Positions 5,093-52,984 of a DNA stretch of 64,000 nt are shown piece after piece. A model generated the notes under the pieces. That model was given only the letters and a program-made list of their open reading frames with translations, did not search any database and was not told where the DNA came from. Source of the stretch: Candidatus Giovannonibacteria bacterium (GTDB lineage: Bacteria; Patescibacteriota; Minisyncoccia; UBA11713; 2-01-FULL-45-33); contig JACOXN010000005.1 in the NCBI GenBank assembly GCA_016176295.1, forward strand, positions 2,156-66,155, in the 5' to 3' direction. Positions within the stretch are counted from its first letter, which is position 1, and each line of letters begins with the position of its first letter. A program made the position numbers and the translations under genes.

Positions 5093-5633
5093 GTTCTTTG
5101 CCGGATAGCTGCTCCGACGTTCGATTAACCTCGGCAGTCGGAGAGGAAAGTCCGAACACCGCCAATTTTGCTTGCAATTTTGGCAGAGACAGTGGCTAAC
5201 GGCCACGCTTTTCCGGAGAAATCCGGAAGGGACGGAAACTCCGACGTAAAAGTCGGAGCTCCGACTTCACTATTAAATTTTGATAGTGCGTCGGAGGTGC
5301 AACAGAAAATATACAGCCGCTTCACCCCTAAAGGGCAAAGAGGCAATGGTGAAATCGTGCGGTAAGAGCGCACGTCTTATGTACGCGAGTACATAAGGTT
5401 GAAAACACCTGTCCGGTGCAACCCTGTGATTCGCTTAGGCGGATAAAGGGGCTCGAGTCTGAGAGCAATCGAAGACCTAGACAGATGGCTATCGCCGCCA
5501 ATGCTTCGCATTGGCCGCAGATGGATGCGGATTAGAAAATATCTGCGCAGATCAGCGCTGATAAAATCTGCGTATATCTGCGAACCACTGCGGAGCAGTG
5601 GTGTGTACAGAATTCGGCTTATAGGCAGAGAAC
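5093..5633 (+). ncRNA. rnpB: RNase P RNA (bacterial type-A-like), unusually long (541 nt)
   Basis: Universal blocks GAGGAAAGTCCGAACAC (P4 5' strand), GGTGAAATCGTGCGGTAAGAGCGCAC and ACAGAATTCGGCTTATAGG (P4 3' strand) are present. The 5' GTTCTTTGCC (5093-5102) pairs fully with the 3' GGCAGAGAAC (5624-5633) as P1. GATAGC and GCTATC form P2. Confidence 0.93.
5611..5633 (+). repeat. Direct repeat copy 1 (AATTCGGCTTATAGGCAGAGAAC), the authentic 3' end of rnpB
   Basis: Exact 23-mer, repeated at 6311-6333. Confidence 0.95.
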
Positions 5634-5637
5634 GACA

Positions 5638-5672
5638 ACGGCCCCGACTTTAAATGTCGCGGGCCGTTTGGT
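5638..5672 (+). terminator. Hairpin terminator immediately after rnpB copy-1 3' end
   Basis: ACGGCCC(C)GAC-loop-GTCGCGGGCCGT followed by TTTGGTTT. Confidence 0.6.
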
Positions 5673-5805
5673 TTACCCCTCTAAATCTCCCCTTATAAAG
5701 GGGAGAAAAATAAATTTTTTCCCCCTTTAATAAAGAGGGGAGGTTAATTTCCCAAAACTTTGATAACCAGCTTTTTGGCGGGTTTCCCGACGCCCATTTT
5801 TTCAC

Positions 5806-5833
5806 TTGATTTTTATGAGTTTGAGAGTATAAT
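5806..5833 (+). promoter_or_regulatory. Putative sigma70-type promoter of hicB (leaderless layout)
   Basis: TTGATT (5806-5811), 16-nt spacer, TATAAT (5828-5833). The ATG at 5840 lies only 6 nt after the -10 box, and there is no SD sequence. Confidence 0.55.
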
Positions 5834-5839
5834 TAAGCC

Positions 5840-6073
5840 ATGAAAAAGCGCAAAGAAAATATATTGCAATATGAAGTTATTTTGGAGCCGAATGGAGCGG
5901 GCTATACTGTTACTGTGCCAAAATTGCCCGGCTTGATTACGGAAGGCAACAACATTAAAGAAGCCCGTGAAATGGCTAAGGATGCGATCAAATGTTATCT
6001 GGAGGCGCTGCTTAAAGACGGGCTGTCCGTGTTTGGTTCGGCCCGGCGCGAAAAAATTACTGTTGGCGGGTAG
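5840..6073 (+). CDS. hicB: HicB-family antitoxin (UPF0150-like)
   Basis: 77 aa. YEVILEPNGAGYTVTVPKLPGLITEGNNIKEAREMAKDAIKCYLEAL is the typical HicB N-terminal fold signature. It sits directly upstream of hicA. Confidence 0.8.
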   Translation: MKKRKENILQYEVILEPNGAGYTVTVPKLPGLITEGNNIKEAREMAKDAIKCYLEALLKDGLSVFGSARREKITVGG

Positions 6074-6079
6074 TTCAAT

Positions 6080-6307
6080 TTGCCCAAATTACCGCGTATA
6101 CCTTCTGCATTGGTTATAAAGGCTCTCAAACGAGCCGGTTTTTATGAATATCATCAAAGCGGCAGCCATATCCAGCTTCGTCATTCCGCTAAACAGCAAT
6201 TAAGAGTTACAATTCCTTTTCATCGAAAAGAACTTACGCCAAAAACTTTAAAATCCATCATAAAACAGGCAGGTTTAGCGGTGTACGAATTTATAAAATT
6301 GATTTAG
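6080..6307 (+). CDS. hicA: HicA-family mRNA interferase toxin
   Basis: 75 aa, TTG start. LKRAGFYEYHQSGSHIQLRH matches the HicA/YcfA GSH motif. It lies 6 nt after hicB. Confidence 0.8.
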   Translation: MPKLPRIPSALVIKALKRAGFYEYHQSGSHIQLRHSAKQQLRVTIPFHRKELTPKTLKSIIKQAGLAVYEFIKLI

Positions 6308-6310
6308 TAA

Positions 6311-6333
6311 AATTCGGCTTATAGGCAGAGAAC
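6311..6333 (+). repeat. Direct repeat copy 2 of the rnpB 3' end (orphan)
   Basis: Exact copy of 5611-5633. Upstream identity stops at the base before AATTC, and downstream identity stops after GAAC. Confidence 0.95.
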
Positions 6334-6334
6334 C

Positions 6335-6369
6335 ACAAAACCTGTCGCCATCTGGCGGATAGGTTTTGT
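6335..6369 (+). terminator. Strong hairpin after repeat copy 2 (probable original rnpB terminator)
   Basis: ACAAAACCT (6335-6343) pairs with AGGTTTTGT (6361-6369). An inner CGCC/GGCG stem is also present. Confidence 0.55.
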
Positions 6370-6391
6370 TAGGTTATGATATAGTATTGAA

Positions 6392-7714
6392 ATGTCGGAA
6401 AAACCCAAATTTGAGTATTCACAAAGCAAAAGCCCAGAAAATCGAGAAAAAACATATGGAGATTTGCAATCGAGAATGGAAGAATTTGTCGATCCGAAAA
6501 AAGCAGAATTAAAAGATATTACTGAAACGCACTGGTATATCCCAAGAAAGATTGATATTGAAAGATTGTGCAAAATAGCCGAACTATCTCAAAAAAATAG
6601 TGATGGCAACAATAAGCAGATTAAAATTCTTGATTTGGGAGGCGGAAAGGGTTTCTTATCAAAATTGATGGCAGACAGCATAAGCGAAAAAAACAGAGAA
6701 GGGATGGTTGTCGACCTTGATTTGGACCAAGAAACACTTCAAAATGCCGCAAAATTTTATAAAAAAACGCAAAACTTACATTTTGTAGCAAGTAATTCAG
6801 AATATGAGGCGGTTAATGTTTTTAATAAAAAATTTGATCTAATAATTAATTCATGGTCATATCCCAAAGAAGAGTATGGCGGACCTGATTATTCTTCGAC
6901 GATCAAAAAACTTAAACCGGCATATTTTGTAAATATTAGCGAAGAACGCCAGGATGATACGGCAGCATTTGATGCCGGCGAAGATTACATCAAAATCGGA
7001 GAATGGTCGGGACTGGATACGATGGAGGTTGTAACCGGCAATTTAGCACACATAGATAGTTATTATTCAGACAAAAGAAGGAAATTATTAAAACAAAACG
7101 GCAGTAATCTTTTTGAAATTTATGTAAGAAAAGACATCGGTGGTGATGAGCAGGATAAATTGCGGAAAGAGCTAGGCAGCGTACAAGTGAAGAAGAAATA
7201 CAAATGGGAAAGAACGCTTGAGAAGCTCTATCCCAATATTTCACCCGTTAATTTCGATAAAGAATCTTTTTTGCAAGAAGGACAACCAGAGGAAGACATA
7301 ATCAAAAAGATCGGCAGGCGGGTCGAAACTTCCAGAATCGGGAACACACTCATAGACGTCGAGGCTTTGAACAAATTTGCTGAAAATTTGCCGATTGAAA
7401 CTGTGTCGGTTGATTCACTTAAAGATTATGTGAGCGAAGGTAATACTTATTGGGCCGCTGAGGACAGTAGTAAATTAGGGCCTTACCAAATTTTACAAGA
7501 TTGGGAAGCTGCACAAAAAAATCCGCTTTGGGCAAAACATATAGAGAGCATAAAAAATGCCAATCTTGATAATCCAATCTGGATCTCACCCGACGGAATT
7601 GTTTTCGACGGCATGCACCGTCTTACCCGCGCGTTCATTGACGGTGCCAAAGAAATAAAAGTTCGCCGATTTAAAGAAATCCCCAAAGAGGCGATTATTG
7701 AGGAAGCTAAGTAG
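6392..7714 (+). CDS. Fusion protein: class I SAM-dependent methyltransferase (N-terminal) plus ParB/sulfiredoxin-like domain (C-terminal)
   Basis: Motif I is ILDLGGGKGF, with an acidic beta-2 end VVDLD and motif IV-like DLIINSW. The C-terminus PIETVSVDSL...HIESIKNANLDNPIWISPDGIVFDGMHRLTRAFIDGAKEIKVRRF carries the ParB-N-like DGxHR signature. Confidence 0.7.
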   Translation: MSEKPKFEYSQSKSPENREKTYGDLQSRMEEFVDPKKAELKDITETHWYIPRKIDIERLCKIAELSQKNSDGNNKQIKILDLGGGKGFLSKLMADSISEKNREGMVVDLDLDQETLQNAAKFYKKTQNLHFVASNSEYEAVNVFNKKFDLIINSWSYPKEEYGGPDYSSTIKKLKPAYFVNISEERQDDTAAFDAGEDYIKIGEWSGLDTMEVVTGNLAHIDSYYSDKRRKLLKQNGSNLFEIYVRKDIGGDEQDKLRKELGSVQVKKKYKWERTLEKLYPNISPVNFDKESFLQEGQPEEDIIKKIGRRVETSRIGNTLIDVEALNKFAENLPIETVSVDSLKDYVSEGNTYWAAEDSSKLGPYQILQDWEAAQKNPLWAKHIESIKNANLDNPIWISPDGIVFDGMHRLTRAFIDGAKEIKVRRFKEIPKEAIIEEAK

Positions 7715-7743
7715 CTCAACTTAGCGACCAGGTCGCCAAGTGG

Positions 7744-7962
7744 TCAATCCTCCAAAACTTTTACAATAAGTTTTTTTGTCGGTTTGGGCTGACCCATTTT
7801 TTTCATAAGGACTCCCACTTGTTCCAAAGTATATATTCTATAATTATTTATCGGATGGCGGGACGCGGCGAATTTCCCTGTTTTATCCCAGTTTCGGAGC
7901 GTTAGTTCCGTTACTCCTATCAATTCGGCTGCCTGGCTTATTGTGAGATATTGTTTGCTCAT
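7744..7962 (-). CDS. Small MerR/excisionase-type HTH DNA-binding protein
   Basis: 72 aa. LTISQAAELIGVTELTLRNWDKTGKFAASRHPINNYRIYTLEQV matches the MerR-type HTH pattern. It is convergent with the MTase-ParB gene. Confidence 0.7.
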   Translation of the reverse strand: MSKQYLTISQAAELIGVTELTLRNWDKTGKFAASRHPINNYRIYTLEQVGVLMKKMGQPKPTKKLIVKVLED

Positions 7963-8013
7963 TTTCTACAATAATATAGCATAGTTCAAAAGGTTAGGCT
8001 ATTATGAACTTAC

Positions 8014-8607
8014 ATGAATATCAGGAAATACGGCGCAATTTTAGGAGTGGCAGCGGCGCTTCTTTTGGTTTCCGGAGTCTGGTTTTTTGCCGGCAAAAAA
8101 GGTGAAAATTTCTCTCCGCGCCTTAATCTGGCTTCTTTCTTCTCATCAATAGTAGACTCGGGTGAGGATAGCGTGTCCGTTGAATCGCCGATAAAAGAGG
8201 AAGGCAGCCATTTCTCATACACCCATCCCGTTTACAAATATTCTTTTTTTTACCCCAAAGGTTTTATCGCCTCGCCCATGAAATATTCTGAAGATTCGGA
8301 AACGCTGGTGGTGGAAAAAGGCGATAGGCAGGGATTCCAGATATTCGCGGCGCCTTTTGAGGAAGAAAACGCCCTCACGGCGGAGAGGATAGCCCAAGAC
8401 CTCCCTGACCTTGTCATGAAAAATGCCGTAAAGGTTACTTTCGGCGGGAATAATATCCAGGGTGTGGCTTTTTCGAGCCATGATGAAGAAGTTGGGGACA
8501 CTTACGAAGTGTGGTTTACCTACGGAGGGAATTTGTACCAGGTGATGGCGTACAAGGAATTTGAAAAAGGATTGCAGGATATTTTGGCAACGTTTAAATT
8601 TGAATGA
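8014..8607 (+). CDS. Hypothetical membrane-anchored/secreted protein
   Basis: 197 aa with an N-terminal TM/signal segment (AILGVAAALLLVSGVWFFAG). No recognisable motif. Its last codons overlap a remnant of a NYN-gene 3' tail (see findings). Confidence 0.6.
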   Translation: MNIRKYGAILGVAAALLLVSGVWFFAGKKGENFSPRLNLASFFSSIVDSGEDSVSVESPIKEEGSHFSYTHPVYKYSFFYPKGFIASPMKYSEDSETLVVEKGDRQGFQIFAAPFEEENALTAERIAQDLPDLVMKNAVKVTFGGNNIQGVAFSSHDEEVGDTYEVWFTYGGNLYQVMAYKEFEKGLQDILATFKFE

Positions 8608-8651
8608 CCAAAAAGGTTATTTTACAAAAAAAAAAGAAAAAGCCCAATAAA

Positions 8652-8662
8652 CATGTCAAGTC
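8652..8662 (+). repeat. CATGTCAAGTC junction 11-mer, copy 1
   Basis: The same 11-mer occurs at 9200-9210 and 9960-9970, each time upstream of a LamG-gene 5' region. Confidence 0.8.
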
Positions 8663-8688
8663 GGGCCTAGTGGTTTTTTGGAGCTTCA

Positions 8689-9120
8689 ATGGAAAGAATA
8701 TGGCATAATGGAAATATGGAAAAAGATTTTCAAAATTGGCATAATAAAAAGTCTAATATTGATAAAATTGAGAAACGGCCGTTTTTTCACGAGCGGGAAA
8801 TTTGGTTTTGCTACCTGGGAGCAAATATCGGGTTTGAACAGGACGGAAGCGGAGAGGAGTTTTTAAGGCCGGTATTAATTGTCCGCAAGTTTAATAATGA
8901 GATTTTTTGGGGGATACCGCTTACTAAAGCCCATAAAAAACTTGCTAAAAAAGCGGAAAAATATTACTTTTCATTTTCGTTTATTTCTGATATAAAAAGT
9001 GCCGCAATTTTATCACAAATTAGATTGATAGACGCAAGGAGACTGAGTCGTCATATAGGTATTATGCCGGATGCCGAATTTATCAAGTTAATAGAAAAGC
9101 TCAAGGCGTTATTGCCGTGA
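8689..9120 (+). CDS. PemK/MazF-like toxin-fold protein
   Basis: EREIWFCYLGANIGFEQDGSGEEFLRPVLIVRKF fits the MazF/PemK N-terminal pattern (Iw..dlg...G.Eq.G..RPvlv). The alternative start ATG at 8716 is preceded by CATAAT plus 6 nt. Confidence 0.7.
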   Translation: MERIWHNGNMEKDFQNWHNKKSNIDKIEKRPFFHEREIWFCYLGANIGFEQDGSGEEFLRPVLIVRKFNNEIFWGIPLTKAHKKLAKKAEKYYFSFSFISDIKSAAILSQIRLIDARRLSRHIGIMPDAEFIKLIEKLKALLP

Positions 9121-9199
9121 GCTTTTCTCGTTTTTCCCCTGCCTTGCGGCAGAGTCGGGCCGAAGCCATTTGTCACTCCATTATAGCAAAACCACAAAC

Positions 9200-9210
9200 C
9201 ATGTCAAGTC
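9200..9210 (+). repeat. CATGTCAAGTC junction 11-mer, copy 2
   Basis: It is embedded in an approximately 45-bp block shared with 9940-9990 (TTATA.CA...AAACCATGTCAAGTC.AATTGTGAATAACA). Confidence 0.8.
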
Positions 9211-9215
9211 AAATT

Positions 9216-9362
9216 GTGAATAACAGATTAAGCCAAAATTTAATGCTCAAAATTTCACATTTTGCGTTGGCATTTTCTATTTTGATTTTTGTATTTTCCA
9301 TTTTTCCCGCAAAATCGGTCCATATCGGCTATTGGAGTTTTGATTGGAAAAATGCGGTATAA
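9216..9362 (+). pseudogene. Truncated 5' copy of a LamG-domain gene (start, signal peptide and GYWSFD motif only)
   Basis: VNNRLSQNLMLKISHFALAFSILIFVFSIFPAKSVHIGYWSFDWKNAV* parallels the N-terminus of the intact gene (MNNKLIQLPLFSLVFFVILF...GLVGYWSFDGSDMAV). It forms part of track ORF 9117..9362. Confidence 0.75.
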
Positions 9363-9385
9363 TAAGCATAAGGCATAATAAAGGA

Positions 9386-9928
9386 ATGAAAAATAAATCA
9401 AATAACTTTGTTTATATTGACGGCGCCAACTTGTACAAAGGCTTGGAAAGCTCAGGCTGGGCGATGGATTACGGGAGATTTAGGGTGTGGTTAACTGAAA
9501 AATACGGAATTAAGCATGCATATATTTTTATCGGGCTCATACCAAAATACAAAGATCTTTACAAATATTTACAGGAATCGGGTTTTACTTTGGTTTTCAA
9601 AGAAGTAATTTACGATGGAAACGGAAAACCAAAAGGAAATTGCGACGCCGATCTGGTTCTACAGGCTGCGTGCGATGCGTATGAAAATAAATTTGAAAAA
9701 GCGATTGTAGTTTCAAGCGATGGGGACTATGCTGGTTTGATAAAATTTCTTAGCGAACGCGGAAAATTGGAAATAATTTTATCGCCACACGCAAAAAATC
9801 TCTGCTCGATTCTTCTCAAAAGAACTGGCGCGCCGATCGCTTACTTGAATGATCAAAAGATTATTTTACAAAGCCAAAAAGAAAAAGCCCCCGGTGCGGA
9901 CGGAACCGCACAAGGGTCTTTCTCGTAA
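9386..9928 (+). CDS. NYN-domain (LabA-like) putative RNase
   Basis: NFVYIDGANLY, CDADLVLQA and IVVSSDGDYAGLIKFL match the NYN/LabA acidic motifs. The ATG at 9386 (MKNKSNNF) is preferred over the track start at 9344. Confidence 0.8.
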   Translation: MKNKSNNFVYIDGANLYKGLESSGWAMDYGRFRVWLTEKYGIKHAYIFIGLIPKYKDLYKYLQESGFTLVFKEVIYDGNGKPKGNCDADLVLQAACDAYENKFEKAIVVSSDGDYAGLIKFLSERGKLEIILSPHAKNLCSILLKRTGAPIAYLNDQKIILQSQKEKAPGADGTAQGSFS

Positions 9929-9959
9929 GTATTGCCTTTATTATACACCCCCCAAAAAC

Positions 9960-9970
9960 CATGTCAAGTC
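9960..9970 (+). repeat. CATGTCAAGTC junction 11-mer, copy 3
   Basis: It lies upstream of the intact LamG gene. It is followed by a 19-bp tandem duplication, TCGAATTGTGAATAACAAA x2 (9969-9987 and 9988-10006), that duplicates the GTG start. Confidence 0.85.
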
Positions 9971-9994
9971 GAATTGTGAATAACAAATCGAATT

Positions 9995-12031
9995 GTGAAT
10001 AACAAATTAATCCAGCTTCCGCTTTTTTCTTTGGTATTTTTTGTAATTCTTTTTCTAAATCCGCAAAAAGCGGAAGCCGACATAATTTTCAAAGTTCCCC
10101 CCAGCCTCGGCCTTATCTCCGGCCTCGTCGGCTATTGGTCTTTCGATGGCTCCGACATGGCCGTAAACACCGCCTTCGATCGCTCGGGGCAGGGAAACAA
10201 CGGCACCCTCACCGGAGGTCCTTCCCGCATCGAAGGCAAACTCGGTCAGGCGCTCTCTTTTGATGGGGTGGATGATTATGTGAGTTTTGGTGGCGGGGCA
10301 GGGACAGTTGCTTATGTTCAATCAAAAGATGCCAGAAACGCAGCTCAAGCAACTACCATAGCTGTAACATTCACTAGCGCCACAGTTTCGGGCAATGCTA
10401 TAGTCGGAGCCGTAACATGGGGTTGCGCTTTCGCCGATTTAACTTCGGTTACAGACAATAAAGGAAATTCATACACTCTAAAAACCAGGGCTGAAGACGC
10501 AGGCAACACACAATCAATTCAAGCTTTTTATGCAAAAAATATTACCGGCGGTGCTACTCATACCATCACCGCCAATATTAACGGAAGCTGCTCTTTTAGA
10601 GCCATTGCAGTTCATGAAGTAAGCGGGGTTGACACAACCGCTCCGGATGATGGCAGCAATCAGCAATTTCAAAGCGCTCCGGGGACAGGCACTAACGCGC
10701 TGACATCAGGTTCATTTACGACCAGCGCCAACGGCGATTATATTTTTAGCGCCACACAAGATACTAGTGCCAACACCGCATCCCATACCGCCGGTACAAC
10801 CATTAGCTATACGCGCGTTACAAATGGTTCATCGGCAGATGTGGATTTTGCTTCAGAATGGGGGACTCAAACAACAGCCGGCTCTGTGGCGGGGACTTGG
10901 ACAAGCAATGAGAATAACGGTCATGTAACTGCGGCGATAGGATTGAAACCCGCGGCGGGCGCCGGCCCCAGTTTAAGCACAAACAGTATTTCCTTCTGGA
11001 TGAAAGCTGCGACCAGCACGACGCAAAGCATAATTGATTTGAACGGCACCGCCACCATCACGGAATCGAGCGGCACCCTCTCCGCAAATAACTTCACAAG
11101 CCCGACTATTTATGTGGACGGAGTGTCGGGCGGGACGGCAAATGACACGAATTGGCATCATGTTGTGGTAACGACGAATTCGGCTATAACGGCGAATGCG
11201 ATTACTATCGGCAAAGCCAGCGGAAGTGTTTTCGGAGGCCGCATCGACGATATCCGCATCTACAACCGCGCCCTCTCTTCCGACGAAATCAAACGCCTCT
11301 ACCGCGTCGGGGCGACTTTGCATGTGAATACAAAAATAAATAATGATTCGCTTGCAAAAGGCCTTGTGGGCTGGTGGAGTTTCGACGGGCCCGACATGGC
11401 GATTAACACCGCTCTCGACCGCTCCGGCCAAGGAAACAACGGCACCCTCACCAACGGCCCCACTCGCACCATCGGCAAACTCGGCCAGGCTTTGAGTTTT
11501 GATGGGACATCATCGGGTGGAGGGAATGATGTTGTAGACCTTGGTGCGACAGCGATTTTAACGGGAAGAGAAAGCGCTTGGGCCATCTGCAGCTGGGTAA
11601 AGATCGATTCTATTCCGCCAACCAGTGGGTCATATATGATTTATAACAGGCGAACGGACAGCGGCGGAGGAGGAAATTTCTCTTTTTATGTGGGAGACTG
11701 GACACTAAGTGATCGACGATGGGCGGTAAGCACAAACAATGGCGCATGGACCGATATGTTCGCTTCATCGCTGATGCCTATTGGAGAGTGGACCTATTTG
11801 TGCGCAACTAGTAATGGTTCTAATATATTTTTTTACTTCAATGGGAGTCCGGACGGGTCTCAAACATATGTGTTGCCGTCAAATGTGGCCAATCTAAGGC
11901 AAACCCTCGGTGCTTTTTGGAACAGTGGCGTGCCAGATGATGTGTTGGACGGCATCATCGACGATGTCCGCGTCTACAACAGGGCGCTTTCCGCAGACGA
12001 AATCAAAAGGCTATATAATTTGGGGAGGTAG
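9995..12031 (+). CDS. Secreted LamG/concanavalin-A-like lectin-fold protein with two LamG modules
   Basis: GTG start with an N-terminal signal/TM segment. Two homologous modules are present: GLVGYWSFDGSDMAVNTAFDRSGQGNNGTLTGGPSRIEGKLGQALSFDG...IDDIRIYNRALSSDEIKRLYRVG and GLVGWWSFDGPDMAINTALDRSGQGNNGTLTNGPTRTIGKLGQALSFDG...IDDVRVYNRALSADEIKRLYNLGR. Confidence 0.85.
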   Translation: MNNKLIQLPLFSLVFFVILFLNPQKAEADIIFKVPPSLGLISGLVGYWSFDGSDMAVNTAFDRSGQGNNGTLTGGPSRIEGKLGQALSFDGVDDYVSFGGGAGTVAYVQSKDARNAAQATTIAVTFTSATVSGNAIVGAVTWGCAFADLTSVTDNKGNSYTLKTRAEDAGNTQSIQAFYAKNITGGATHTITANINGSCSFRAIAVHEVSGVDTTAPDDGSNQQFQSAPGTGTNALTSGSFTTSANGDYIFSATQDTSANTASHTAGTTISYTRVTNGSSADVDFASEWGTQTTAGSVAGTWTSNENNGHVTAAIGLKPAAGAGPSLSTNSISFWMKAATSTTQSIIDLNGTATITESSGTLSANNFTSPTIYVDGVSGGTANDTNWHHVVVTTNSAITANAITIGKASGSVFGGRIDDIRIYNRALSSDEIKRLYRVGATLHVNTKINNDSLAKGLVGWWSFDGPDMAINTALDRSGQGNNGTLTNGPTRTIGKLGQALSFDGTSSGGGNDVVDLGATAILTGRESAWAICSWVKIDSIPPTSGSYMIYNRRTDSGGGGNFSFYVGDWTLSDRRWAVSTNNGAWTDMFASSLMPIGEWTYLCATSNGSNIFFYFNGSPDGSQTYVLPSNVANLRQTLGAFWNSGVPDDVLDGIIDDVRVYNRALSADEIKRLYNLGR

Positions 12032-12063
12032 ATTTTTAGGACAAAATATGCTATAATTGGCGC

Positions 12064-12336
12064 ATGAACAAACCAACCGCGCCGATTAGAAAGCAAAAGT
12101 TACCCGTTTCGTTTAAACGGCTTTTGTGGTCGTACGATTTCAATGCTATTGATGCGGAGCAATATAAAAGAACTATAATAGTAAATGTAGTTAATTACGG
12201 CAATCTCTCGGAATGGCGTTGGATTAAAAAACATTACGGCCGCCTAGAAATAAAAAAAATATTACATGAAATAAAGCCTACGGAGATCAGGAACGGTGCC
12301 CGGAAATTAGCCTCTCTTATTTTAGCCGCAAATTAA
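12064..12336 (+). CDS. Small hypothetical protein, probable partner of the downstream AbiEii-like nucleotidyltransferase
   Basis: 90 aa. The LLWSYDFNAIDAEQYKRTIIVNVVNYGNLSEWRWIKKHYG pattern is one I have seen upstream of DUF1814-type genes. It ends 9 nt before the next gene. TATAAT (12052-12057) lies 6 nt before the ATG. Confidence 0.5.
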   Translation: MNKPTAPIRKQKLPVSFKRLLWSYDFNAIDAEQYKRTIIVNVVNYGNLSEWRWIKKHYGRLEIKKILHEIKPTEIRNGARKLASLILAAN

Positions 12337-12345
12337 GATTTATAT

Positions 12346-12963
12346 ATGCATTCAGAGGCACTTACCAAAGAAGGCGCGAAAGTTTTCAAGAAACTCAAAG
12401 CAATAAAGGGTTTTTATTTAGCCGGCGGTACAGCCCTGGCATTGCAAATCGGGCACCGGATATCCGTTGATTTTGATTTGTTCTCAAATAAAAAAATCAA
12501 AAAAACGCTTTTATCGCAAATAGAGAAATTACTTGCAGGCGATAAAATTGAAATCTCGGTTAATAACAGTGATGAACTCACTTTATTTATAAATGGCGTT
12601 AAGGTTACTTTTTTGCATTATCCGTTTCCTGTGCTTAAACCTTTTATCAAACACGACTCATTTCCTTTACTCAGCGTCGAGGAAATTGCCGCAACCAAGG
12701 CATATACTATCGGCCGGCGCGGATCCTACAAAGATTATGTAGACATTTTTTTTGTTTTAAGCGGCAAATATACGAATTTAGAAGATGTGTTAAGTTTTGC
12801 CAATCGTAAATACGGCGATGCGTTTAATGGGCGGCTTTTTTTGGAACAATTGGCGTATTGGGGCGATATTAAAGACGAAAAAATAGTGTTTTTGGGCAAA
12901 GAGACAGGCCTTCAAGCGGTAAAACAATTTTTTGAAAAAACAATAAAAACCATTAAACTGTAA
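12346..12963 (+). CDS. Nucleotidyltransferase AbiEii/AbiGii toxin family (DUF1814-like), short form
   Basis: FYLAGGTALALQIGHRISVDFDLF is the characteristic N-terminal NTase motif of this family. Confidence 0.75.
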   Translation: MHSEALTKEGAKVFKKLKAIKGFYLAGGTALALQIGHRISVDFDLFSNKKIKKTLLSQIEKLLAGDKIEISVNNSDELTLFINGVKVTFLHYPFPVLKPFIKHDSFPLLSVEEIAATKAYTIGRRGSYKDYVDIFFVLSGKYTNLEDVLSFANRKYGDAFNGRLFLEQLAYWGDIKDEKIVFLGKETGLQAVKQFFEKTIKTIKL

Positions 12964-13081
12964 AATCATCGCTGATGTCGAGGGATTAAAAGGCTTTACA
13001 ATTAGTACAGGTAGATTTGACTTTGTTGCCGATTCATATAAAATAAGGAGTATATTCCTATTATTTAATTTTTATTAAAAT

Positions 13082-13643
13082 ATGCTTATTATAAAGCGTT
13101 ATTTGGGAGAAAAGATTTCAAAAAATCTTGGAAAGAAGAAAATCCTGATCATTTATGGGGCAAGGCAAGTGGGTAAGACCACACTGGTCAAAGATTTCTT
13201 ATATGAGCTATTTGGATATTTTGGAAAAACTTTGTATTATTTTCCCCTTAAAGCCATTTTTTTCAAATAAAAGAAAATCAATTTCTAAGCTGAGGAAGTA
13301 TTATTTTTATGATCTTGGCGTAAGGAATGCCGTCGTTGACGACTTTACTCCCATAGAAAGCCGAAAGGACTCCGGGGCTTTGTGGGAGAATTTTTGTATT
13401 GTGGAAAGAATGAAGCGCAACGATACTGCCGGCCGCTTAGCCAATTATTATTTTTGGCGTTCTTACCAGAGGGAGGAAATTGATATGATTGAGGTTGAAA
13501 ATGAAAACATATACGGTTTTGAGTTTAAGCGGGAAATGCAATCGTTAGATAAAAAAATAAAAGAAATTTATACGCAAGATTTGGCAGGGAAGGGTGATTT
13601 GGAAGTGATTTCCTCTGAAAATTTTCGTAACTTTGTAACATGA
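13082..13643 (+). pseudogene. Decayed AAA+ ATPase (AAA_14/DUF4143 type): internally deleted and frameshifted
   Basis: The N-terminal fragment carries Walker A (ILIIYGARQVGKTTLVKDFL; ORF 13082..13270). The C-terminal DUF4143-like fragment (KYYFYDLGVRNAVV...YYFWRSYQREEIDMI; ORF 13155..13643) is in another frame. The ATPase core between them is missing. Confidence 0.75.
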
Positions 13644-13688
13644 TTTTCGGCGGCGGAAATCAAACGGCTTTACAATTTGGGACGCTAA
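13644..13688 (+). pseudogene. Orphan 3' stub of a LamG-domain gene
   Basis: TTTTCGGCGGCGGAAATCAAACGGCTTTACAATTTGGGACGCTAA translates to FSAAEIKRLYNLGR*. The intact gene ends LSADEIKRLYNLGR*. Confidence 0.8.
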
Positions 13689-13744
13689 TATGTTGCGCTC
13701 TTCGTATCAATATGATACGATAAACCTATCTAAATGATACGAAT

Positions 13745-14800
13745 ATGCTTAAGATAAACCAAAAGGAACAAAGAATTATCGAGCTTTTCCTTAAAAAAGG
13801 CAAAATGTCGTCGTCCACGGCGTATAGTGAATTGGCCGGTTTAGGAGAAGAAATTTCCCTTGTAACAGTCAAGCGAATTTTATCCAAAATGGCGGTGAAA
13901 AGCCTTCTGAAGGTGCATGGGTCGGGGCGGGCGACTTCATACGACATCTCGACGCTGGGAAGAATGTTTGCAGATATCGTAGCCCGGGATTATTGCGCCA
14001 CAGAACCAGACAGGAGGTATGGCATGAGCAGTTTTAATTTTGAGTTTTTCCCCACATTGCCCGGAGAGATATTTGCGGATAAAGATTTAAAAACTTTGAA
14101 CAGCGCAACCCTGGAATACAAAAGAAAAACCACGAATTTGCCCAGGACCATCCAAAAAAAAGAATTGGAACGACTTATCATTGAACTCTCATGGAAGTCA
14201 TCGAAAATTGAAGGCAACACCTATACTCTTTTGGATACGGAAAAATTGATCTTAGAAAACAAAGAGGCTCCGGGCCACGATAAAAAAGAGGCTATTATGA
14301 TCTTGAACCATAAAGATGCGTTTAATTTTATTCATAAGAATAAAGCATTATTTAAAACGTTCAACCGCGCCAATCTGGAAAAATTGCACGCAATTTTAGT
14401 TAAAAATTTAAGCGTAGGTTTGGGTTTTCGGAAAAGGCTTGTCGGCGTTGTCGGGTCAAAATACAGGCCACTTGATAATATCCATCAAATTGAGGAAGCG
14501 GCTAGCCAGCTTTTCCTGGCGGTGGCGCGCGTAGAATCGATTTACGCCAAAGCGCTAATCGCTCTATTGGGTATTAGCTATATCCAGCCTTTTGAAGACG
14601 GCAATAAGCGTACATCAAGGTTGATGGCTAATGCCTTGCTTTTTGCGCATGGATTGGCTCCGCTTTCTTACAGAAGCGTGGAAGAAAAAGAATATCGCGA
14701 AGCAACTTTGGTATTTTATGAATTAAACTCAATCGTGCCGTTAAGAAATATTTTCGTGGATCAATATAATTTTGCAGCGAATAACTATGTTGTAAAGTAA
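13745..14800 (+). CDS. Fic/DOC-family protein with N-terminal wHTH, alpha-inh motif and a degenerate active-site motif
   Basis: Inhibitory-helix motif SSKIEGN ((S/T)xxxE(G/N)). The Fic-motif position reads QPFEDGNKRTSR (14585-14620) instead of HxFx(D/E)GNGRxxR. Confidence 0.8.
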   Translation: MLKINQKEQRIIELFLKKGKMSSSTAYSELAGLGEEISLVTVKRILSKMAVKSLLKVHGSGRATSYDISTLGRMFADIVARDYCATEPDRRYGMSSFNFEFFPTLPGEIFADKDLKTLNSATLEYKRKTTNLPRTIQKKELERLIIELSWKSSKIEGNTYTLLDTEKLILENKEAPGHDKKEAIMILNHKDAFNFIHKNKALFKTFNRANLEKLHAILVKNLSVGLGFRKRLVGVVGSKYRPLDNIHQIEEAASQLFLAVARVESIYAKALIALLGISYIQPFEDGNKRTSRLMANALLFAHGLAPLSYRSVEEKEYREATLVFYELNSIVPLRNIFVDQYNFAANNYVVK

Positions 14801-14822
14801 TACTGTCTATTCAAATAATTTT

Positions 14823-15002
14823 TATATCGGAGCATGGGATAATGGCACCGGTGTGGTAAACGGCACAATTGACGAGGCTAGAATCTACCCTCCTACGCCA
14901 AGCCTGCCTGTCGCCTGCCTGCCGGTAGGCAGGGCTACGGAAGGGCAAGCACCCGCGCGCTGTCGGTGGGATGAAATTAAGAGGCTATATAGTTTGGGGC
15001 GC
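14823..15002 (+). pseudogene. Orphan 3' portion of a LamG-domain gene, interrupted by a 62-bp palindromic insertion
   Basis: YIGAWDNGTGVVNGTIDEARIY[insert]DEIKRLYSLGR aligns to LGAFWNSGVPDDVLDGIIDDVRVYNRALSADEIKRLYNLGR of the intact gene. The stop codon is lost, so the track ORF 14853..17468 reads through it. Confidence 0.8.
14889..14950. repeat. Small palindromic insertion element (core CCTGCCTGCCGGTAGGCAGG, 14914-14933)
   Basis: It interrupts the conserved ...RIY | NRALS.DEIKRLY coding stub. The core recurs, reverse-complemented with 1 mismatch, at 62715-62734. Confidence 0.65.
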
Positions 15003-15050
15003 TGCTGTGTTACAATATCTCTATTAACTTATCAGCGTAATTTATCACAA

Positions 15051-17468
15051 ATGTTTATTTTTAATATTTTAAAAGGATTAGCAGGAAGTTTGTCTTGGAG
15101 GATGGAAGCCTCGGTTTTTTCCGAAGATGATGCGGTTTCTGATGAACCAACCGTCTTTTATAAACTTTCCCAATGGTGCATTCTCGCCGTGGCGTTTCTC
15201 TTGCCGGTGTGGTTCCTGCCACTCACCATTTCGCCTCTGATGTTCAACAAGGCGCTTCTCGTCTCGGTGCTGGTGATCCTTGCGTTTTTACTTTTTATCG
15301 TCCACGCGGTAATGCGCGGCGGAATAAAAACCGGAAAACATTGGATATTTTGGGCGGGTTTCGCAGTTGTGTTACTTTGGCTTGCCTCGGCTTTGACGAC
15401 CTCACAGAGCGGCTTCAGTATTTGGGGTTTGGGCGCGGAAACTTCCACGCTTTTTTCGCTGATTATCTTTTTGGTTTTGGCTTGGCTCGTGTCCGCGCTT
15501 TTTGCGGAGCCTGCGGCTTTGGGGCGACTGCTTATGTTTTCCGCTACCGGTTTGGGAATTTTTGTAGTGCTCTCGCTGCTTTCGGTTTTGGGAGCCTTGC
15601 AGTGGCTGGGCGGGCCGCTTACTCAGCGAACTTTCAGCACCATGGGTTCCTGGAACGGAGCGGGAATTGCCGCCGGTCTTTTTGCGGTGATGCTTTATCC
15701 TTTTATTCTGGCTGCTTCCGGTTTTTGGCGCTGGGTCGTGTACGCGTTGTTCGGGCTTTCGATGCTTTTAATGTTGATGGTGAATTTTTCACTTGCCTGG
15801 CTGATCCTCGGGCTTTTCGCTCTGCTTATACTTTGCTATGGGGTTTGGAGCGGCACTTTGCGGGGCGCTGCGATGGTGACGGTGGTTTTGTTGCTCGCTT
15901 TTTCTCTTTTGGGTTATTTCTTTGAAAAACCAATAGCGAACACCGTCGAAGCTTTGGGCGTAGTTCCGCCTTTGGAAGTTGGTGTTAACCATCCGACGAC
16001 TTTCGGCATAATAAAAAGCACTCTTTCCAAAGACATGTTTTTGGGCAACGGTCCGGCAACTTTCGGCTATCTTTGGGACCAGGAAAAGCCGGTCGCTGTT
16101 AACCAAACGCCTTTTTGGGGCGTGCGGTTCGCATCCGGTTCGTCTTATTTCCTGACATTACTGGCCGAGCTTGGGGTTCTCGGTTGGCTCGTTTTTATGA
16201 CGTTCGTTTTGGGGCTTTGGTATCTTAGTTTGCGCGCAGTCACTTCGCACGCGGCCTCGGAGTATGGGCTCTTGGTGCTGGCGCCGTTCCTGCTTCTTTC
16301 CTATACCGTATTTATGTGGGCTCTTTATCCGATCAATTTTGCATTGGCGGCCTTAGGATTTTTGTTCCTGGGGATCGCTCTCGCGGCGCTTCGCGCCTCC
16401 GGGCTGATGAAGTCCAGGAGCTTTACGCTCTTTAGCGAGGGGACCCGTGGGTTCGTTTCGGCAATATTCATCGTGATATTCGTGATAGCGAGCTTGGGTG
16501 GTCTGTACGTTACCGTTACCCGTTACATGGGCCAGCTTGCGTATTCGAAGGGAATCGAGATATTCAACGAGTCCGGAGATTTGAATGCCACGGAACAGAA
16601 ATTGCTTTCGGCCGTCAAATTTGATTCACAAAACGACCTTTATTACAGAACTCTTTCAGATGTTTATCTTTTAAGAGCGAGGCTTCTTCTGCAAAACCAG
16701 CAGACGACGGCGGACCTTCTGGCATCGCAATTCAAGGATGTTTTGGATGCTTCCCTGGCGGCGGCTCAAAACGCGGAGAAAGTTTCACCAATGGACTTCC
16801 TGAATTTCGAGTCGATGGGCAAGATCTACGAATTCCTGGTGCCTTTAGGGACGGAGGGAGCGGCCGAAGCGGCGCTGGCCCAGTATGACCTCGCGATAAA
16901 ATTGGCGCCGGTAAATCCAGCGCTTCTGCGCGACAAAGCCCTGGTTTATTTCGGACGCTACGGCATTTCTCAAAAGAAGGACGACTTGAAACAGGCCGAA
17001 GCGCTGCTGGTCAAATCCACGGAGCTTAAGCCGGATTATGCGGCGGCCCATTATCTTCTGGCACAGGTATTGGTGGCTGAAGGCAATGAAAAGGATGCTA
17101 TCGCGAGAAGTGAAGCGGCGGCGTTACTTGCCCCCAACGATATAGGCGCGCTCTTCCAGCTTGGTCTTCTTTACTACCGCAATCAAAGATATGCCGATTC
17201 GGAAGCGGTCTTCACCCGCGCGGTCACACTGAACGATAATTATGCGAATGCCCGCTACTTCCTTGGATTAATCTATGATAAAAACGGCAACAAGCAGCGC
17301 GCCATCGAAGAATTCAAGAAAGTGGCGGCTTTGAACCCCTCTAACGAAGAAGTGAAAAAGATCCTTGTGAACCTGCAGGGCGGCAAAAGCGCTCTCGCCG
17401 GCATATCTCCCCCTTCGCAGCTTCCGGAAAAGAGAATAGAACCACCGGTAAAGGAACAGGGAAACTGA
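15051..17468 (+). CDS. Polytopic membrane protein (O-antigen ligase/Wzy-like) with C-terminal TPR repeats
   Basis: More than 10 hydrophobic segments are followed by TPR-like repeats (AHYLLAQVLVAEGNEKDAI..., ARYFLGLIYDKNGNKQRAIEEFKKVAALNP). The start at 15051 (MFIFNILKG) was chosen because upstream codons are LamG-stub sequence. A TACAAT box lies upstream. Confidence 0.7.
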   Translation: MFIFNILKGLAGSLSWRMEASVFSEDDAVSDEPTVFYKLSQWCILAVAFLLPVWFLPLTISPLMFNKALLVSVLVILAFLLFIVHAVMRGGIKTGKHWIFWAGFAVVLLWLASALTTSQSGFSIWGLGAETSTLFSLIIFLVLAWLVSALFAEPAALGRLLMFSATGLGIFVVLSLLSVLGALQWLGGPLTQRTFSTMGSWNGAGIAAGLFAVMLYPFILAASGFWRWVVYALFGLSMLLMLMVNFSLAWLILGLFALLILCYGVWSGTLRGAAMVTVVLLLAFSLLGYFFEKPIANTVEALGVVPPLEVGVNHPTTFGIIKSTLSKDMFLGNGPATFGYLWDQEKPVAVNQTPFWGVRFASGSSYFLTLLAELGVLGWLVFMTFVLGLWYLSLRAVTSHAASEYGLLVLAPFLLLSYTVFMWALYPINFALAALGFLFLGIALAALRASGLMKSRSFTLFSEGTRGFVSAIFIVIFVIASLGGLYVTVTRYMGQLAYSKGIEIFNESGDLNATEQKLLSAVKFDSQNDLYYRTLSDVYLLRARLLLQNQQTTADLLASQFKDVLDASLAAAQNAEKVSPMDFLNFESMGKIYEFLVPLGTEGAAEAALAQYDLAIKLAPVNPALLRDKALVYFGRYGISQKKDDLKQAEALLVKSTELKPDYAAAHYLLAQVLVAEGNEKDAIARSEAAALLAPNDIGALFQLGLLYYRNQRYADSEAVFTRAVTLNDNYANARYFLGLIYDKNGNKQRAIEEFKKVAALNPSNEEVKKILVNLQGGKSALAGISPPSQLPEKRIEPPVKEQGN

Positions 17469-22744: not shown

Positions 22745-22778
22745 GCGGGATTAGTTTAGTGGCAGAATGGCTGCTTCC
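22745..22778 (+). pseudogene. Orphan 5' half of tRNA-Gly (acceptor, D-arm, anticodon stem up to the anticodon)
   Basis: Exact 34-nt copy of 23121-23154 (GCGGGATTAGTTTAGTGGCAGAATGGCTGCTTCC). It diverges inside the anticodon. Confidence 0.9.
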
Positions 22779-22857: not shown

Positions 22858-23130
22858 ATGTTTTACACTTACGTATTATTATGCATTGATAAGCAGCGGT
22901 CGCGAAGTAAATTTTATATTGGTTCAACTGAAGATTTGCGTGAAAGGTTGAGGCAGCATAAGAGTGGAAGTGTGGATACTACAAAAAGTTTTGATGAGGT
23001 CTTGTTAATTTATTTTGAAGCTTGTCTAAATAAAACAGACGCAAGAAAAAGAGAGTTGCAATTAAAAACAAGTTTTGGCAGAGGCTATTTAAAAAAGAGA
23101 TTAGAAGGTTATTTCGATAAGCGGGATTAG
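22858..23130 (+). CDS. Small GIY-YIG nuclease-superfamily protein (YhbQ/UPF0213-like)
   Basis: FYTYVLLC...KFYIGSTEDLRERLRQH...RELQLK provides the GIY, YIG, Arg and Glu motifs. The stop TAG (23128-23130) lies inside the first 10 nt of tRNA-Gly. Confidence 0.85.
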   Translation: MFYTYVLLCIDKQRSRSKFYIGSTEDLRERLRQHKSGSVDTTKSFDEVLLIYFEACLNKTDARKRELQLKTSFGRGYLKKRLEGYFDKRD

Positions 23131-23191
23131 TTTAGTGGCAGAATGGCTGCTTCCCAAGCAGCAGGTACGAGTTCGATTCTCGTATCCCGCA
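23121..23191 (+). tRNA. tRNA-Gly (anticodon CCC)
   Basis: Cloverleaf folded by hand. Acceptor GCGGGAT/ATCCCGC, anticodon stem GCTGC/GCAGC with loop TTCCCAA, T-arm ACGAG-TTCGATT-CTCGT. CCA is not encoded. Confidence 0.9.
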
Positions 23192-23211
23192 CAGAAGCTT
23201 CAAATTTAATT

Positions 23212-51931: not shown

Positions 51932-52984
51932 ATGGCAAAACAAAAAGAAGTCAGCCCGAGGCTGACCAGCCCTGGGCTGGAAAAAATGACAAAAGAAAAT
52001 CGTTGGAAAGAAGTCGATGCGGCGGTAAAAGACATTCAGTCGCGTTTCGGCGAAGGTATTCTGATGAAAATGGGTGAGATGCCCAAAGTAGACGTGGATG
52101 TAATACCCACGGGTTCACTGGGTCTTAACATGGCGCTGGGCGTAGGCGGTGTTCCCCGCGGAAGAATAATCGAAATTTACGGTCCTGAATCTTCGGGAAA
52201 AACCACGTTGGCGCTCCACATTGTTTCCGAAGCGCAGAAGAAAGGCGGTATTTGCGCTTTCGTTGACGCGGAGCATGCGCTGGACCCGGAGTACGGCAGG
52301 CGCCTCGGAGTAAAGATCGATGATCTGTTGATCTCGCAGCCCGATACCGGAGAACAGGCATTGGATGTAGTGGAATCACTGGTGCGGTCCGGACGGATAG
52401 ATGTTATCGTTGTGGATTCGGTTGCGGCTCTCACCCCCAAAGCTGAAATAGAGGGCGATATGGGCCAGCAGCACATGGGGCTGCAAGCGCGCCTTATGTC
52501 CCACGCATTGCGGAAACTGACGGCCATAGTCGCCAAATCAAAAACAGTGGTCATATTCATAAACCAGGTGAGGATGCAGATCGGAATAATGTTCGGAAAC
52601 CCCGAGACGACCACAGGAGGAAAAGCGCTTAAATTTTATTCTTCCGTGAGGATAGAGGTGCGCCGCGCGGCACAGATAAAAAAAGGCGAAGAAATAATCG
52701 GGAATCGCGTAAAAGCCAAAGTGGTAAAAAATAAAGTTGCCCCGCCTTTCCGGGCGACAGAGTTCGATATTCTTTACAATCAGGGAATTTCCTACGAAGG
52801 TGAACTTCTGGGGCTGGGAGAAAAGTACGAAGTAATCAAAAAATCAGGCGCCTCATATGCTTTTGGCAGCGTATCACTGGGGAGGGGTTATGACTCCGCG
52901 AGGGCCAAGCTTCAGGAAGACAAAAAATTAGCGCACGAATTGGAAGCTGCCATCAGAGAGGCGGCTAACAAAGCAACGGAGTAA
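51932..52984 (+). CDS. recA: Recombinase RecA
   Basis: [15 protein letters not shown] Walker [10 protein letters not shown] and the L2 region [21 protein letters not shown]. Confidence 0.97.

Follow-up and report, generated by a model that had tools for sequence, protein, structure and literature searches.

In the streptococcal CIMEs (cis-mobilizable elements) and the Prochlorococcus tycheposons, cargo segments that lack an integrase are separated by partial copies of the end of the target, a layout that arises by tandem accretion at tRNA genes or the 3′ ends of genes. DNA can also be inserted through the single crossover of a circle that carries part of a gene end; in E. coli, such events duplicated 109-950 bp of the homologous locus in 56 of 60 clones (PMC3240628). 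How toxin–antitoxin systems integrate into chromosomes was still called unclear in a 2026 survey (PMC13617665). Here we describe a 64-kb window (the whole stretch of DNA that was analysed, 64,000 nucleotides (nt) long), a chromosomal segment of a metagenome-assembled genome (MAG) of Candidatus Giovannonibacteria, a member of the Candidate Phyla Radiation (CPR; Parcubacteria). In this window, two small genes, one PemK/MazF-like and one encoding an NYN domain, lie upstream of a gene for a secreted LamG protein, each behind a partial copy of the LamG 5′ end (Table 1). In our best reading of this sequence, the region is made up of miniature cassettes of an addiction type that lack a recombinase and are lined up at the 5′ end of LamG; it is not a set of gutted LamG paralogues.

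The region shares with CIMEs and tycheposons the repeated partial target ends that restore the gene. Those elements rely on a defined attachment (att) core and a cognate integrase, whereas here the targets and repeat lengths are varied and no integrase was found in the 64-kb window. As predicted from the sequence, a cassette is a PemK/MazF-fold or NYN gene plus a convergent small-RNA gene that has a consensus sigma-70 promoter and an adjoining DnaA-box-like motif. On the comparisons given below, the cassettes are insertions accompanied by duplication of the target's end and not replacements of LamG bodies.

The LamG 5′ region occurs three times, at the start of the intact gene (9952-10170) and in two stubs. 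The second stub (stub2, 9192-9344) is 79% identical to the intact copy (9952-10147) over 145 ungapped columns, a score that none of 300 shuffles attains. In the six-frame translation of the window, matches to GLVGYWSFDGSDMA at 8 or more of 14 positions are confined to the first stub (stub1) and the LamG domain starts at 10121 and 11360, and shuffles gave none. The first-pass annotation had described three such copies, with each stub followed by a different toxin-like cassette, and both statements hold. Stub2 contains an open reading frame (ORF) that runs from a GTG at 9216 (MNNRLSQ..GYWSFDWKNAV, then stop) to the stop at 9362, and in stub2 (MNNR...) as in the intact gene (9995, MNNK...) the LamG start codon is a GTG inside a DnaA-like box. 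The signal-peptide region diverges too far among stub2, intact LamG and the related locus L017 for reliable alignment. An ORF at 9117..9362, of the type annotated as a short ‘hypothetical’, is a displaced gene start. A 19-nt tandem duplication (TCGAATTGTGAATAACAAA twice, 9971-9989 and 9990-10008) doubles the DnaA-box-like motif ahead of intact LamG; it puts an upstream ATG (9961) out of frame and leaves the GTG at 9995 as the LamG start.

In both stubs the homology to intact LamG fades at the equivalent of ~10147-10172, an endpoint that divergence allows to be resolved to ~5-10 nt only; the point in intact LamG that matches the stub ends (X) lies at ~10163-10172. Each stub ends in a stop codon (8706-8708 and 9360-9362), and each cassette gene uses its own ATG, placed exactly 6 nt past GGCATAAT. 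This junction motif, which the first-pass annotation had noted, is a genuine -10-type box. The tails of the two stubs (8667-8714 and 9329-9382) share 86% identity as far as the cassette ATGs (none of 300 shuffles scored as high), and either tail matches intact LamG over just 20-29 columns. Both stubs also carry a GK(D/N) allele that is L017-like, where intact LamG has GSD. The similar tails, the shared allele and the NYN remnant ahead of stub1 together indicate a single stub junction that may have been propagated within the NYN-PemK-NYN array, for example by unequal crossover between stubs, and not two cuts. Of the identical breakpoint noted at first pass, the common position of the two ends is upheld; the idea of independent breaks is not, since the resemblance of the tails marks a propagated junction. 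Junction positions differ in other arrays (L007; atpG in L029 versus L063). Microhomology at the junctions was considered and found unconvincing, consisting only of A-rich resemblances to the PemK start.

The remnant ahead of stub1 (NYN_a) points to a third cassette. Positions 8600-8645 are 91% identical to 9845-9890, which encodes the conserved C-terminal tail of the NYN protein, so an older NYN cassette once stood there. It was apparently deleted almost wholly across an 8-nt sequence, TTGAATGA, which it shares with the end of the neighbouring 197-amino-acid (aa) gene and at which it is joined to the stop of that gene. The end of the 197-aa gene is native, because the orthologue in L097 likewise ends in ...KFE and a stop.

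Table 1 Features of the window and layout of related loci (positions are those of the window; related loci are listed last).
Feature	Position	Strand	Remarks
RNase P RNA	5093-5637	+	Rfam RF00010
Upstream anchor gene, 197 aa	8014..8607	+	No Pfam match; in L017 and L097 an orthologue immediately precedes the PemK-LamG region
NYN_a, remnant of older NYN cassette	8600..8662	+	Last ~45 nt of NYN gene, T-tract and -35 box TTGACA (minus strand, 8659-8654)
LamG 5′ stub1	8663..8715	+	Encodes GLVVFWSFNGKNMA and stop at 8664-8708; junction box GGCATAAT at 8702-8709; signal-peptide part deleted
PemK/MazF-fold toxin gene, 134 aa	8716..9120	+	Pfam PF02452, E=2e-8, 34.7 bits (cutoff 23.1)
PemK 3′ element	9121..9228	-	Promoter, predicted antisense RNA, DnaA-box-like TTATTCACA at 9215-9223
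LamG 5′ stub2	9192..9385	+	Repeat begins inside PemK 3′ element; GGTATAAT at 9355-9362 and GGCATAAT at 9372-9379 at junction
NYN (LabA-like) nuclease-domain gene, 180 aa	9386..9928	+	Pfam PF01936, E=9e-15
NYN 3′ element	9860..10008	-	Promoter TTGACA 9967-9962, TATAAT 9945-9940
Intact LamG, concanavalin-like two-domain secreted protein, 678 aa	9995..12031	+	Pfam PF13385 (Laminin_G_3), E=5e-29
Mirror-image array at LamG 3′ end	12032..15003	+	DUF6922+AbiEii, DUF4143 and Fic cassettes separated by stubs
DUF6922+AbiEii cassette	12064..12963	+	First in LamG 3′ array
LamG 3′ stub A	12975-13014	+	After DUF6922+AbiEii
Broken DUF4143 (AAA-ATPase-associated) gene	13082..13643	+	Split into overlapping ORFs 13082..13270 and 13155..13643
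LamG 3′ stub B	13645-13688	+	AEIKRLYNLGR and stop; after DUF4143 gene
Fic gene	13745..14800	+	After stub B
LamG 3′ stub C	~14840-15003	+	After Fic
GIY-YIG ORF, 90 aa	22858..23130	+	Between tRNA-Gly copies; end overlaps intact tRNA by 10 nt
Intact tRNA-Gly(CCC)	23121-23192	+	Downstream of GIY-YIG ORF
L086			-12..+43 of rpiB, PemK, intact rpiB; TGA of stub ORF overlaps PemK ATG
L029, L063			atpG stubs, to codon 26 in L029 and to codon 17 in L063
L053			radC promoter region duplicated through ATG
L065			Repeat, PemK, IS200-like ORF, HicBA, repeat
L085			Repeat, PemK, NYN, repeat
L036			Repeat, PemK, GIY-YIG, repeat
L007-L016 (10 loci, several independent samples)			Stub, PemK, stub, MNT-HepT, intact 412-aa gene
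L091, L035, L039			3′-end versions; L039 has the LamG 3′ end plus three stubs

Between 8500 and 10300 there are only two promoters that match the consensus at 12 of 12 positions, and both are on the minus strand (9207-9180 and 9967-9940). In the PemK 3′ element, TTGACA (9207-9202) and a TG-extended TATAAT (9185-9180) are separated by a 16-nt spacer. Both promoters face back into the preceding toxin gene and probably drive an antisense RNA. The sequence AAACCATGTCAAGTC.AATTGTGAATAACA, initially taken for a promoter-proximal block of LamG, is neither promoter nor coding sequence of that gene; read on the minus strand, it is the -35 hexamer of such a TTGACA-16-TATAAT promoter and belongs to the 3′ element of a cassette. 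Each of the two promoters is flanked by a DnaA-box-like TTATTCACA, and of the four matches to TTATNCACA in the window, three are in this region. The predicted PemK antisense RNA begins with a GGC-UUCG-GCC hairpin (9157-9167) and includes a second hairpin with a GCAA loop (9139-9152). For the NYN cassette, the predicted antisense RNA forms a long hairpin and a T-tract terminator (9911-9880, minus strand), and the conserved C-terminal tail of the NYN protein (..QKEKAPGADGTA; ...KEKAPDADGTA) is encoded across the predicted terminator. The NYN element has two DnaA-box-like TTATTCACA motifs (9975-9983 and 9994-10002), the second of which stems from the 19-nt duplication.

A metagenome scan returned 80 PemK loci, and 73 non-redundant loci were compared. 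The same element of ~100 nt follows the PemK stop codon in all 73, and there is no conservation upstream of the ATG. Its components come in a fixed order: a T-rich run, a hairpin with a covarying stem, TCGGGCCGAAGCCATTTGT, TATAGCAAA, (A)TGTCAAG and a TTATCCACA/TGTGGATAA box. The minus-strand -35 hexamer is TTGACA or TTGACT in 55/73 loci, the -10 box is TG-extended in 50/73 and the spacer measures 16-17 nt in 61/73. In 25/73 loci the 28 nt upstream of the -35 hexamer contain a DnaA-type box (one mismatch allowed), compared with 0/73 for a control segment. Compensatory changes mark the second hairpin; among them, pair 24/39 is UA in 28 sequences against 19 with CG, and pair 26/37 has CG in 31 sequences and UA in 17. 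A -10-type box occurs, as it does in the window, 4-9 nt ahead of the PemK ATG in 17/73 loci (5-7 for control windows). Among the 73 loci, neither side of PemK has a conserved ORF that could encode a protein antitoxin, and neither 3′ element matched an Rfam family at the gathering threshold. We infer that the small RNAs of the PemK and NYN 3′ elements would act as antisense antitoxins. In L017 alone, a 65-aa zinc-ribbon-like ORF (1066-1263) precedes PemK, its stop overlapping the PemK start (ATGA); the product could be an alternative, protein antitoxin.

Both toxin families are widespread. The PemK family profile, compared with the PDB, matches EndoA/MazF chains (E=1e-4), and a protein search found 1604 PemK homologues, nearly all of 133-135 aa and from CPR bacteria. 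NYN homologues number 3321, of 175-180 aa, and are 75-86% identical to the query among the best matches listed. The post-stop layout of the NYN cassette is repeated in L085, L098 and L102, and in L098 and L102 the cassettes are flanked by repeats of the start of the downstream gene. At least 585 PemK loci were present in metagenome contigs, whereas the 2.9 million viral contigs of IMG/VR held one PemK locus and one NYN locus; the cassettes are chromosomal rather than phage-borne.

Some 3′ elements occur on their own. An NYN-type antisense module (..GAAAGACCCUUGUGC.G-loop-C.GCACCGGGGGCUUUUU) without an NYN gene follows the PemK cassette of L063 (~1390-1500), and 8600-8662 of the window is a remnant of the same kind; such orphan modules fit a history in which the toxin was lost and the antitoxin may have outlived it. 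L039 has an orphan PemK-type element at ~2480-2660 (TATAGCAAA...GTCAAG...TGTGGATAG) and no toxin gene, beside a minus-strand tRNA-like sequence in its array of LamG 3′ stubs. Two database proteins are fusions, P0097 of GIY-YIG and PemK (233 aa) and P0187 of LamG and GIY-YIG (760 aa), which suggests read-through elsewhere between neighbouring cassettes or between a cassette and its target.

Target-end repeats recur in related loci. For 65 loci, the 350 nt upstream of each PemK ATG were compared with 3 kb downstream on the same strand, and the best match exceeded 33 bits in 14/65, compared with 1/65 reversed-sequence controls. Two of these 14 differ in kind: L037 holds a pair of PemK genes, each with a leader of its own, and the L095 sequence is of low complexity. 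In the remaining loci the upstream copy ends 0-5 nt (sometimes 20-25) ahead of the ATG, and the downstream copy begins past the 3′ element or further cassettes. The direct repeats are of variable length, and PemK and NYN cassettes were found at unrelated genes, flanked by 23-130 nt of repeated target end (Table 1). Cassettes of the protein-antitoxin type (HicBA and MNT-HepT) end exactly at stop codons and have neither extra sequence nor a 3′ element. This recurrent, patterned pairing of gene-end stubs with toxin-like cassettes bears out the initial argument that the stubs are not a product of random decay.

The site-directed replacement of LamG bodies that the first-pass annotation deduced from the stubs has to be abandoned. 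From the end of either cassette to the following LamG 5′ copy, the window contains no LamG 3′ motif. L017, the closest PemK relative (80% amino-acid identity), is syntenic, with an orthologue of the 197-aa gene, the zinc-ribbon ORF, PemK and its 3′ element and an intact LamG (...GLVGYWSFDGKDMAGNTAY...); L097 has the same gene order and a divergent PemK, and in both loci a single LamG directly follows the PemK cassette. The same pattern is found at rpiB, atpG, radC, tRNA-Gly and RNase P RNA.

Differences between repeat copies preserve a record of coding constraint. In nine coding comparisons, they fall 26/16/53 at codon positions 1/2/3, and 48 codon differences are synonymous and 22 non-synonymous (40 and 22 without the L005 comparison, where each end is functional). 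Under neutral decay of one copy from an identical start, with the other copy constrained, an estimated ~43% would be synonymous. The synonymous share is above this estimate, so the stubs would have spent much of their divergence as functional gene ends, that is, as displaced termini or imported alleles and not as fresh duplications.

The LamG 3′ end is present four times (11990-15003), once intact and three times as a stub, and every cassette starts directly after a (former) LamG stop. The strain variant L005 (SRR12113383; 2100-3083) shows what happens at this boundary. Its LamG is 99.7% identical to that of the window and the protein is identical; the last 48 nt hold nine differences, all synonymous, and this end is 95% identical to stub B. 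A different cassette (RhuM + Fic/DOC-like) begins 6 nt past the LamG stop. Because the L005 end differs synonymously, resembles stub B and leads into another cassette, the terminal segment of LamG travels with the adjoining cassette, and this one strain variant is direct evidence of exchange at the boundary. An origin of the 3′ repeats in a diversity-generating retroelement (template and variable repeats) was set aside on sequence grounds: the repeats are ~40 nt long and their differences are mainly synonymous and not adenine-specific. No reverse transcriptase is among the annotated ORFs of the window. The DUF4143 gene of this array is probably a decaying pseudogene. Stub C has a GC-rich palindromic insert of ~85 nt (..CCTGCCTGCCGGTAGGCAGGG.., 14880-14965) and has lost its stop codon; it is thus fused, in the ORF list, to a downstream O-antigen-ligase-like/TPR gene (14853..17468).

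The window has two parallel cases at RNA genes. The last 28 nt of the RNase P RNA (5611-5638) are repeated at 6311-6338 with 96% identity, and the repeats bracket a HicB/HicA pair; the HicB/HicA cassette measures 700 bp and reaches 4 nt past the HicA stop. At tRNA-Gly(CCC) the repeat consists of the first 34 nt, as far as the anticodon loop, and stands at 22745-22778 with 100% identity, 376 nt upstream of the intact gene.

Core genes surround the region, including those for ribonucleotide reductase, RNase P RNA, MurJ, LepA, RF-1, FtsX, SecF and RecA. Independent Logan contigs reproduce 5358-9168 and 9144-13197 at 100% identity; these two contigs share just 25 nt, within the multicopy PemK 3′ element, and the join of PemK to stub2 is supported by the MAG assembly together with the synteny of L017 and L097. 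A LamG scan of genome contigs gave one locus, L006, at 30% identity, and in the LamG protein search no orthologue exceeded 45% identity. Exact-protein look-ups (the 197-aa gene, a 194-aa form of NYN, LamG and Fic) returned only short Logan contigs of the same strain, of which L005 is the sole informative variant.

We give an even chance to homology-driven insertion–duplication of addiction-type toxin cassettes, combined with array shuffling, as the source of these arrangements. A unit made up of a target-end copy and a cassette would enter either through one Campbell-type crossover or through a one-sided event anchored by homology. At LamG the crossover would fall within a conserved end motif, GLVGYWSFDG..DMA at the 5′ end or DEIKRLYNLGR and stop at the 3′ end. 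Entry would restore an intact gene and displace the previous functional end as a stub, and unequal crossover between stubs would then duplicate, delete or swap cassettes. In the window, an L017-like PemK-LamG arrangement would have become NYN-stub-PemK-stub-NYN-LamG by the addition of NYN units, with duplication of ~-45..X of LamG, and the upstream NYN copy would have decayed later. We infer a circular or one-sided intermediate, dependence on RecA and this order of events; recA lies at 51932..52984 of the window, and 30 window ORFs scanned against Pfam included no match to a tyrosine- or serine-recombinase family. Conserved motifs at LamG domain boundaries may serve as anchors, which would explain the repeated use of LamG ends (in the window, L039 and L065). 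The mechanism was at first called undescribed; single-crossover insertion–duplication and tandem accretion at att sites have both been described.

Several points weigh against insertion–duplication by homology. Neither a circular junction nor an empty-site allele was seen. Homologous recombination spreads existing repeat-flanked cassettes and does not explain their first linkage to the end of a new target, although many unrelated targets are used. In at least five independent loci the left border coincides with the start codon or is only a few nt away from it, a high precision that suggests either a defined step of cutting or joining or else strong selection. The repeats at the two RNA genes occupy classical att positions of tyrosine integrases, one of them stopping in the anticodon loop of tRNA-Gly and the other being the 3′ end of RNase P RNA. 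LamG genes of distant lineages have exact matches of only 13-26 nt, which confines exchange to rather close relatives. Few segments, all short, enter the codon-position test, and the antisense RNAs are predicted from promoters and folds.

Some of these points would suit non-autonomous elements moved in trans by a site-specific (tyrosine) recombinase, with the stubs as attL/attR and the arrays built by tandem accretion. Direct repeats that restore the target gene, as att sites do, the endpoints of the two RNA-gene repeats, the precise cassette borders and the one end position common to both LamG stubs are all consistent with this explanation. It is nonetheless unlikely: the targets are many and unrelated (rpiB, atpG, radC, LamG and others), the repeat lengths run from 23 to more than 170 nt, there is no evident boundary motif and atpG is used at two different codons. 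HicBA and MNT-HepT cassettes end at stop codons with no extra site, and the sole conserved sequence of the PemK and NYN 3′ elements is explained by promoter and RNA. No recombinase family appears among the 30 Pfam-scanned window ORFs, and none was noticed beside the arrays of related loci, which were not searched systematically for one. Transposition in situ could also give precise borders at many unrelated targets, with long, variable target-site duplications (from widely staggered cuts or target-primed copying) and stubs that then decay neutrally; near-identical repeats (93% in L086, 95% in L091 and 100% at tRNA-Gly) are in its favour. We consider it distinctly improbable, as repeats of 23-300 nt match no known transposase, the third-position and synonymous bias is beyond that of a single neutrally decaying copy, the stubs have the GK[D/N] allele and intact LamG has GSD, and the L005 terminus co-varies with its cassette. 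A cassette that includes an antisense promoter is not a copy of either transcript, and the window showed neither a transposase nor a reverse transcriptase. Terminal inverted repeats were not noticed, though the cassette ends were given no inverted-repeat scan. IS200/RAYT-like (Y1 HUH) ORFs occur in 3 of ~76 loci (L017 8-397, L018 and L065 4549-5220), with a perfect palindrome after the L017 ORF; IS200/RAYT transposases acting on the conserved hairpin were rejected because homologues are present in just these three loci. Cassettes derived from mRNA (retro-cassettes) were considered since the left border coincides with leaderless-type starts, and were likewise rejected, as the antisense promoter and DnaA-like box extend beyond any sense terminator.

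The arrangement might also have begun as three tandem LamG paralogues, with cassettes taking the place of two of the bodies at a specific site. Several LamG genes per genome are common in CPR bacteria, and both stubs end alike and keep their reading frames. Yet neither cassette is followed by a LamG 3′ remnant, the sequence upstream of each ‘paralogue’ start is the 3′ element of the preceding cassette, and the stub tails are copies of each other; with single LamG genes in L017 and L097 and the same architecture at single-copy and RNA genes, we regard this origin as very improbable. A chimeric join at multicopy sequence during assembly is hardly credible. Logan unitigs do break at 9144-9168, in the PemK 3′ element, and L005 starts at 9878, in the NYN-type terminator. 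Against an artefact, three independent samples reproduce each half at 100% identity, single contigs cover the stub2-NYN-LamG and the stub1-PemK junction, the order is backed by synteny with L017 and L097, and an analogous array recurs in L007-L016 from several independent samples. A strain rearrangement, suggested by the breaks at 9144-9168 and 9878, was rejected because these fall in multicopy, conserved cassette sequence.

Our literature search found no prior description of these cassettes or of their target-end duplications. The locus and its relatives offer a concrete, testable picture of how toxin–antitoxin and defence modules may move without recombinases of their own, and suggest that selfish toxin modules spread by borrowing the ends of host genes. 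Earlier functional alleles remain on record in the stubs, and the conserved termini of hypervariable surface-protein genes may serve as portable homology arms. Two very large CPR toxin families are flagged (~1600 PemK-like and ~3300 NYN proteins) whose conserved partner appears to be a convergent small RNA, as predicted here, and not a protein; if so, antisense-RNA control extends to MazF-fold and NYN-domain toxins. For annotation, the apparent 5′ region of a gene can be the promoter of a neighbouring cassette. A bolder proposal, which we hold to be doubtful, is a new class of autonomous, recombinase-less mini-mobile elements in CPR bacteria (Patescibacteria). Each would combine a toxin gene and an antisense antitoxin under DnaA-box control with a self-attached host gene end, and would capture expression signals while restoring the gene. 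Integron-like arrays would form by host recombination on end motifs of surface proteins, and a dedicated step would make the start-codon junctions and the first target copy.

Among described systems, Campbell-type insertion–duplication is similar in that the direct repeat is the homologous segment flanking the insert and one intact gene copy is left. It calls for repeat copies that are donor and recipient alleles of a functional end, as the synonymous bias, the co-variation in L005 and the stub alleles indicate here; it differs in that the insert here is a natural minimal toxin cassette and the circles are hypothetical. Integron arrays likewise contain co-oriented single-gene cassettes that are often promoterless and often encode toxin–antitoxin systems, with a structured 3′ element, and new cassettes are placed beside a fixed promoter junction. 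Unlike integrons, the region shows no IntI or attI: the 30 window ORFs compared with Pfam gave no match to a tyrosine-recombinase family, and the ORFs on either side of the array encode the 197-aa protein and LamG. Copies of host gene ends separate the cassettes, and many host genes serve as sites. No attC cores (RYYYAAC...GTTRRRY) were seen by eye, and no formal attC model was run. Where attC forms an R''-L''/L'-R' palindrome, the 3′ element here consists of a TTGACA-N16-TATAAT promoter, two short RNA hairpins and a TTATCCACA-like box.

In atp6 of Allomyces, in work by Paquin et al. (1994), a mobile ORF reportedly brings a foreign gene terminus, which takes over as the functional end, and leaves the resident end as a pseudogene stub. 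The closest parallel in the window to such fungal mitochondrial ORFs is the GIY-YIG ORF beside the tRNA-Gly half. The mitochondrial ORFs differ in being DNA endonucleases that trigger repair-mediated homing. We know of no PemK, NYN, HicA, HEPN or Fic protein that acts as a DNA-cutting homing enzyme.

Type I toxin–antitoxin systems resemble the cassettes in having a strongly promoted, convergent small-RNA gene (predicted here) that overlaps the 3′ end of the toxin gene, and the predicted NYN terminator lies inside the last codons. Type I toxins are small membrane or hydrophobic peptides, whereas the proteins here have soluble domains and are of 134 aa and 175-180 aa; MazF-fold and NYN toxins normally pair with protein antitoxins or with none. 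The toxin fold of the type II PemK/MazF systems is present, but a conserved adjacent protein antitoxin gene is absent from the 73 loci. Finally, as in the orphan toxin/immunity modules found downstream of rhs, cdiA and maf, a short homology to the conserved part of a large secreted-protein gene precedes alternative toxin cassettes. In those modules it permits switching by recombination and provides an in-frame fusion to a new toxic C terminus, whereas here the stubs stop and the cassettes are separate genes for cytoplasmic toxins unrelated to LamG.

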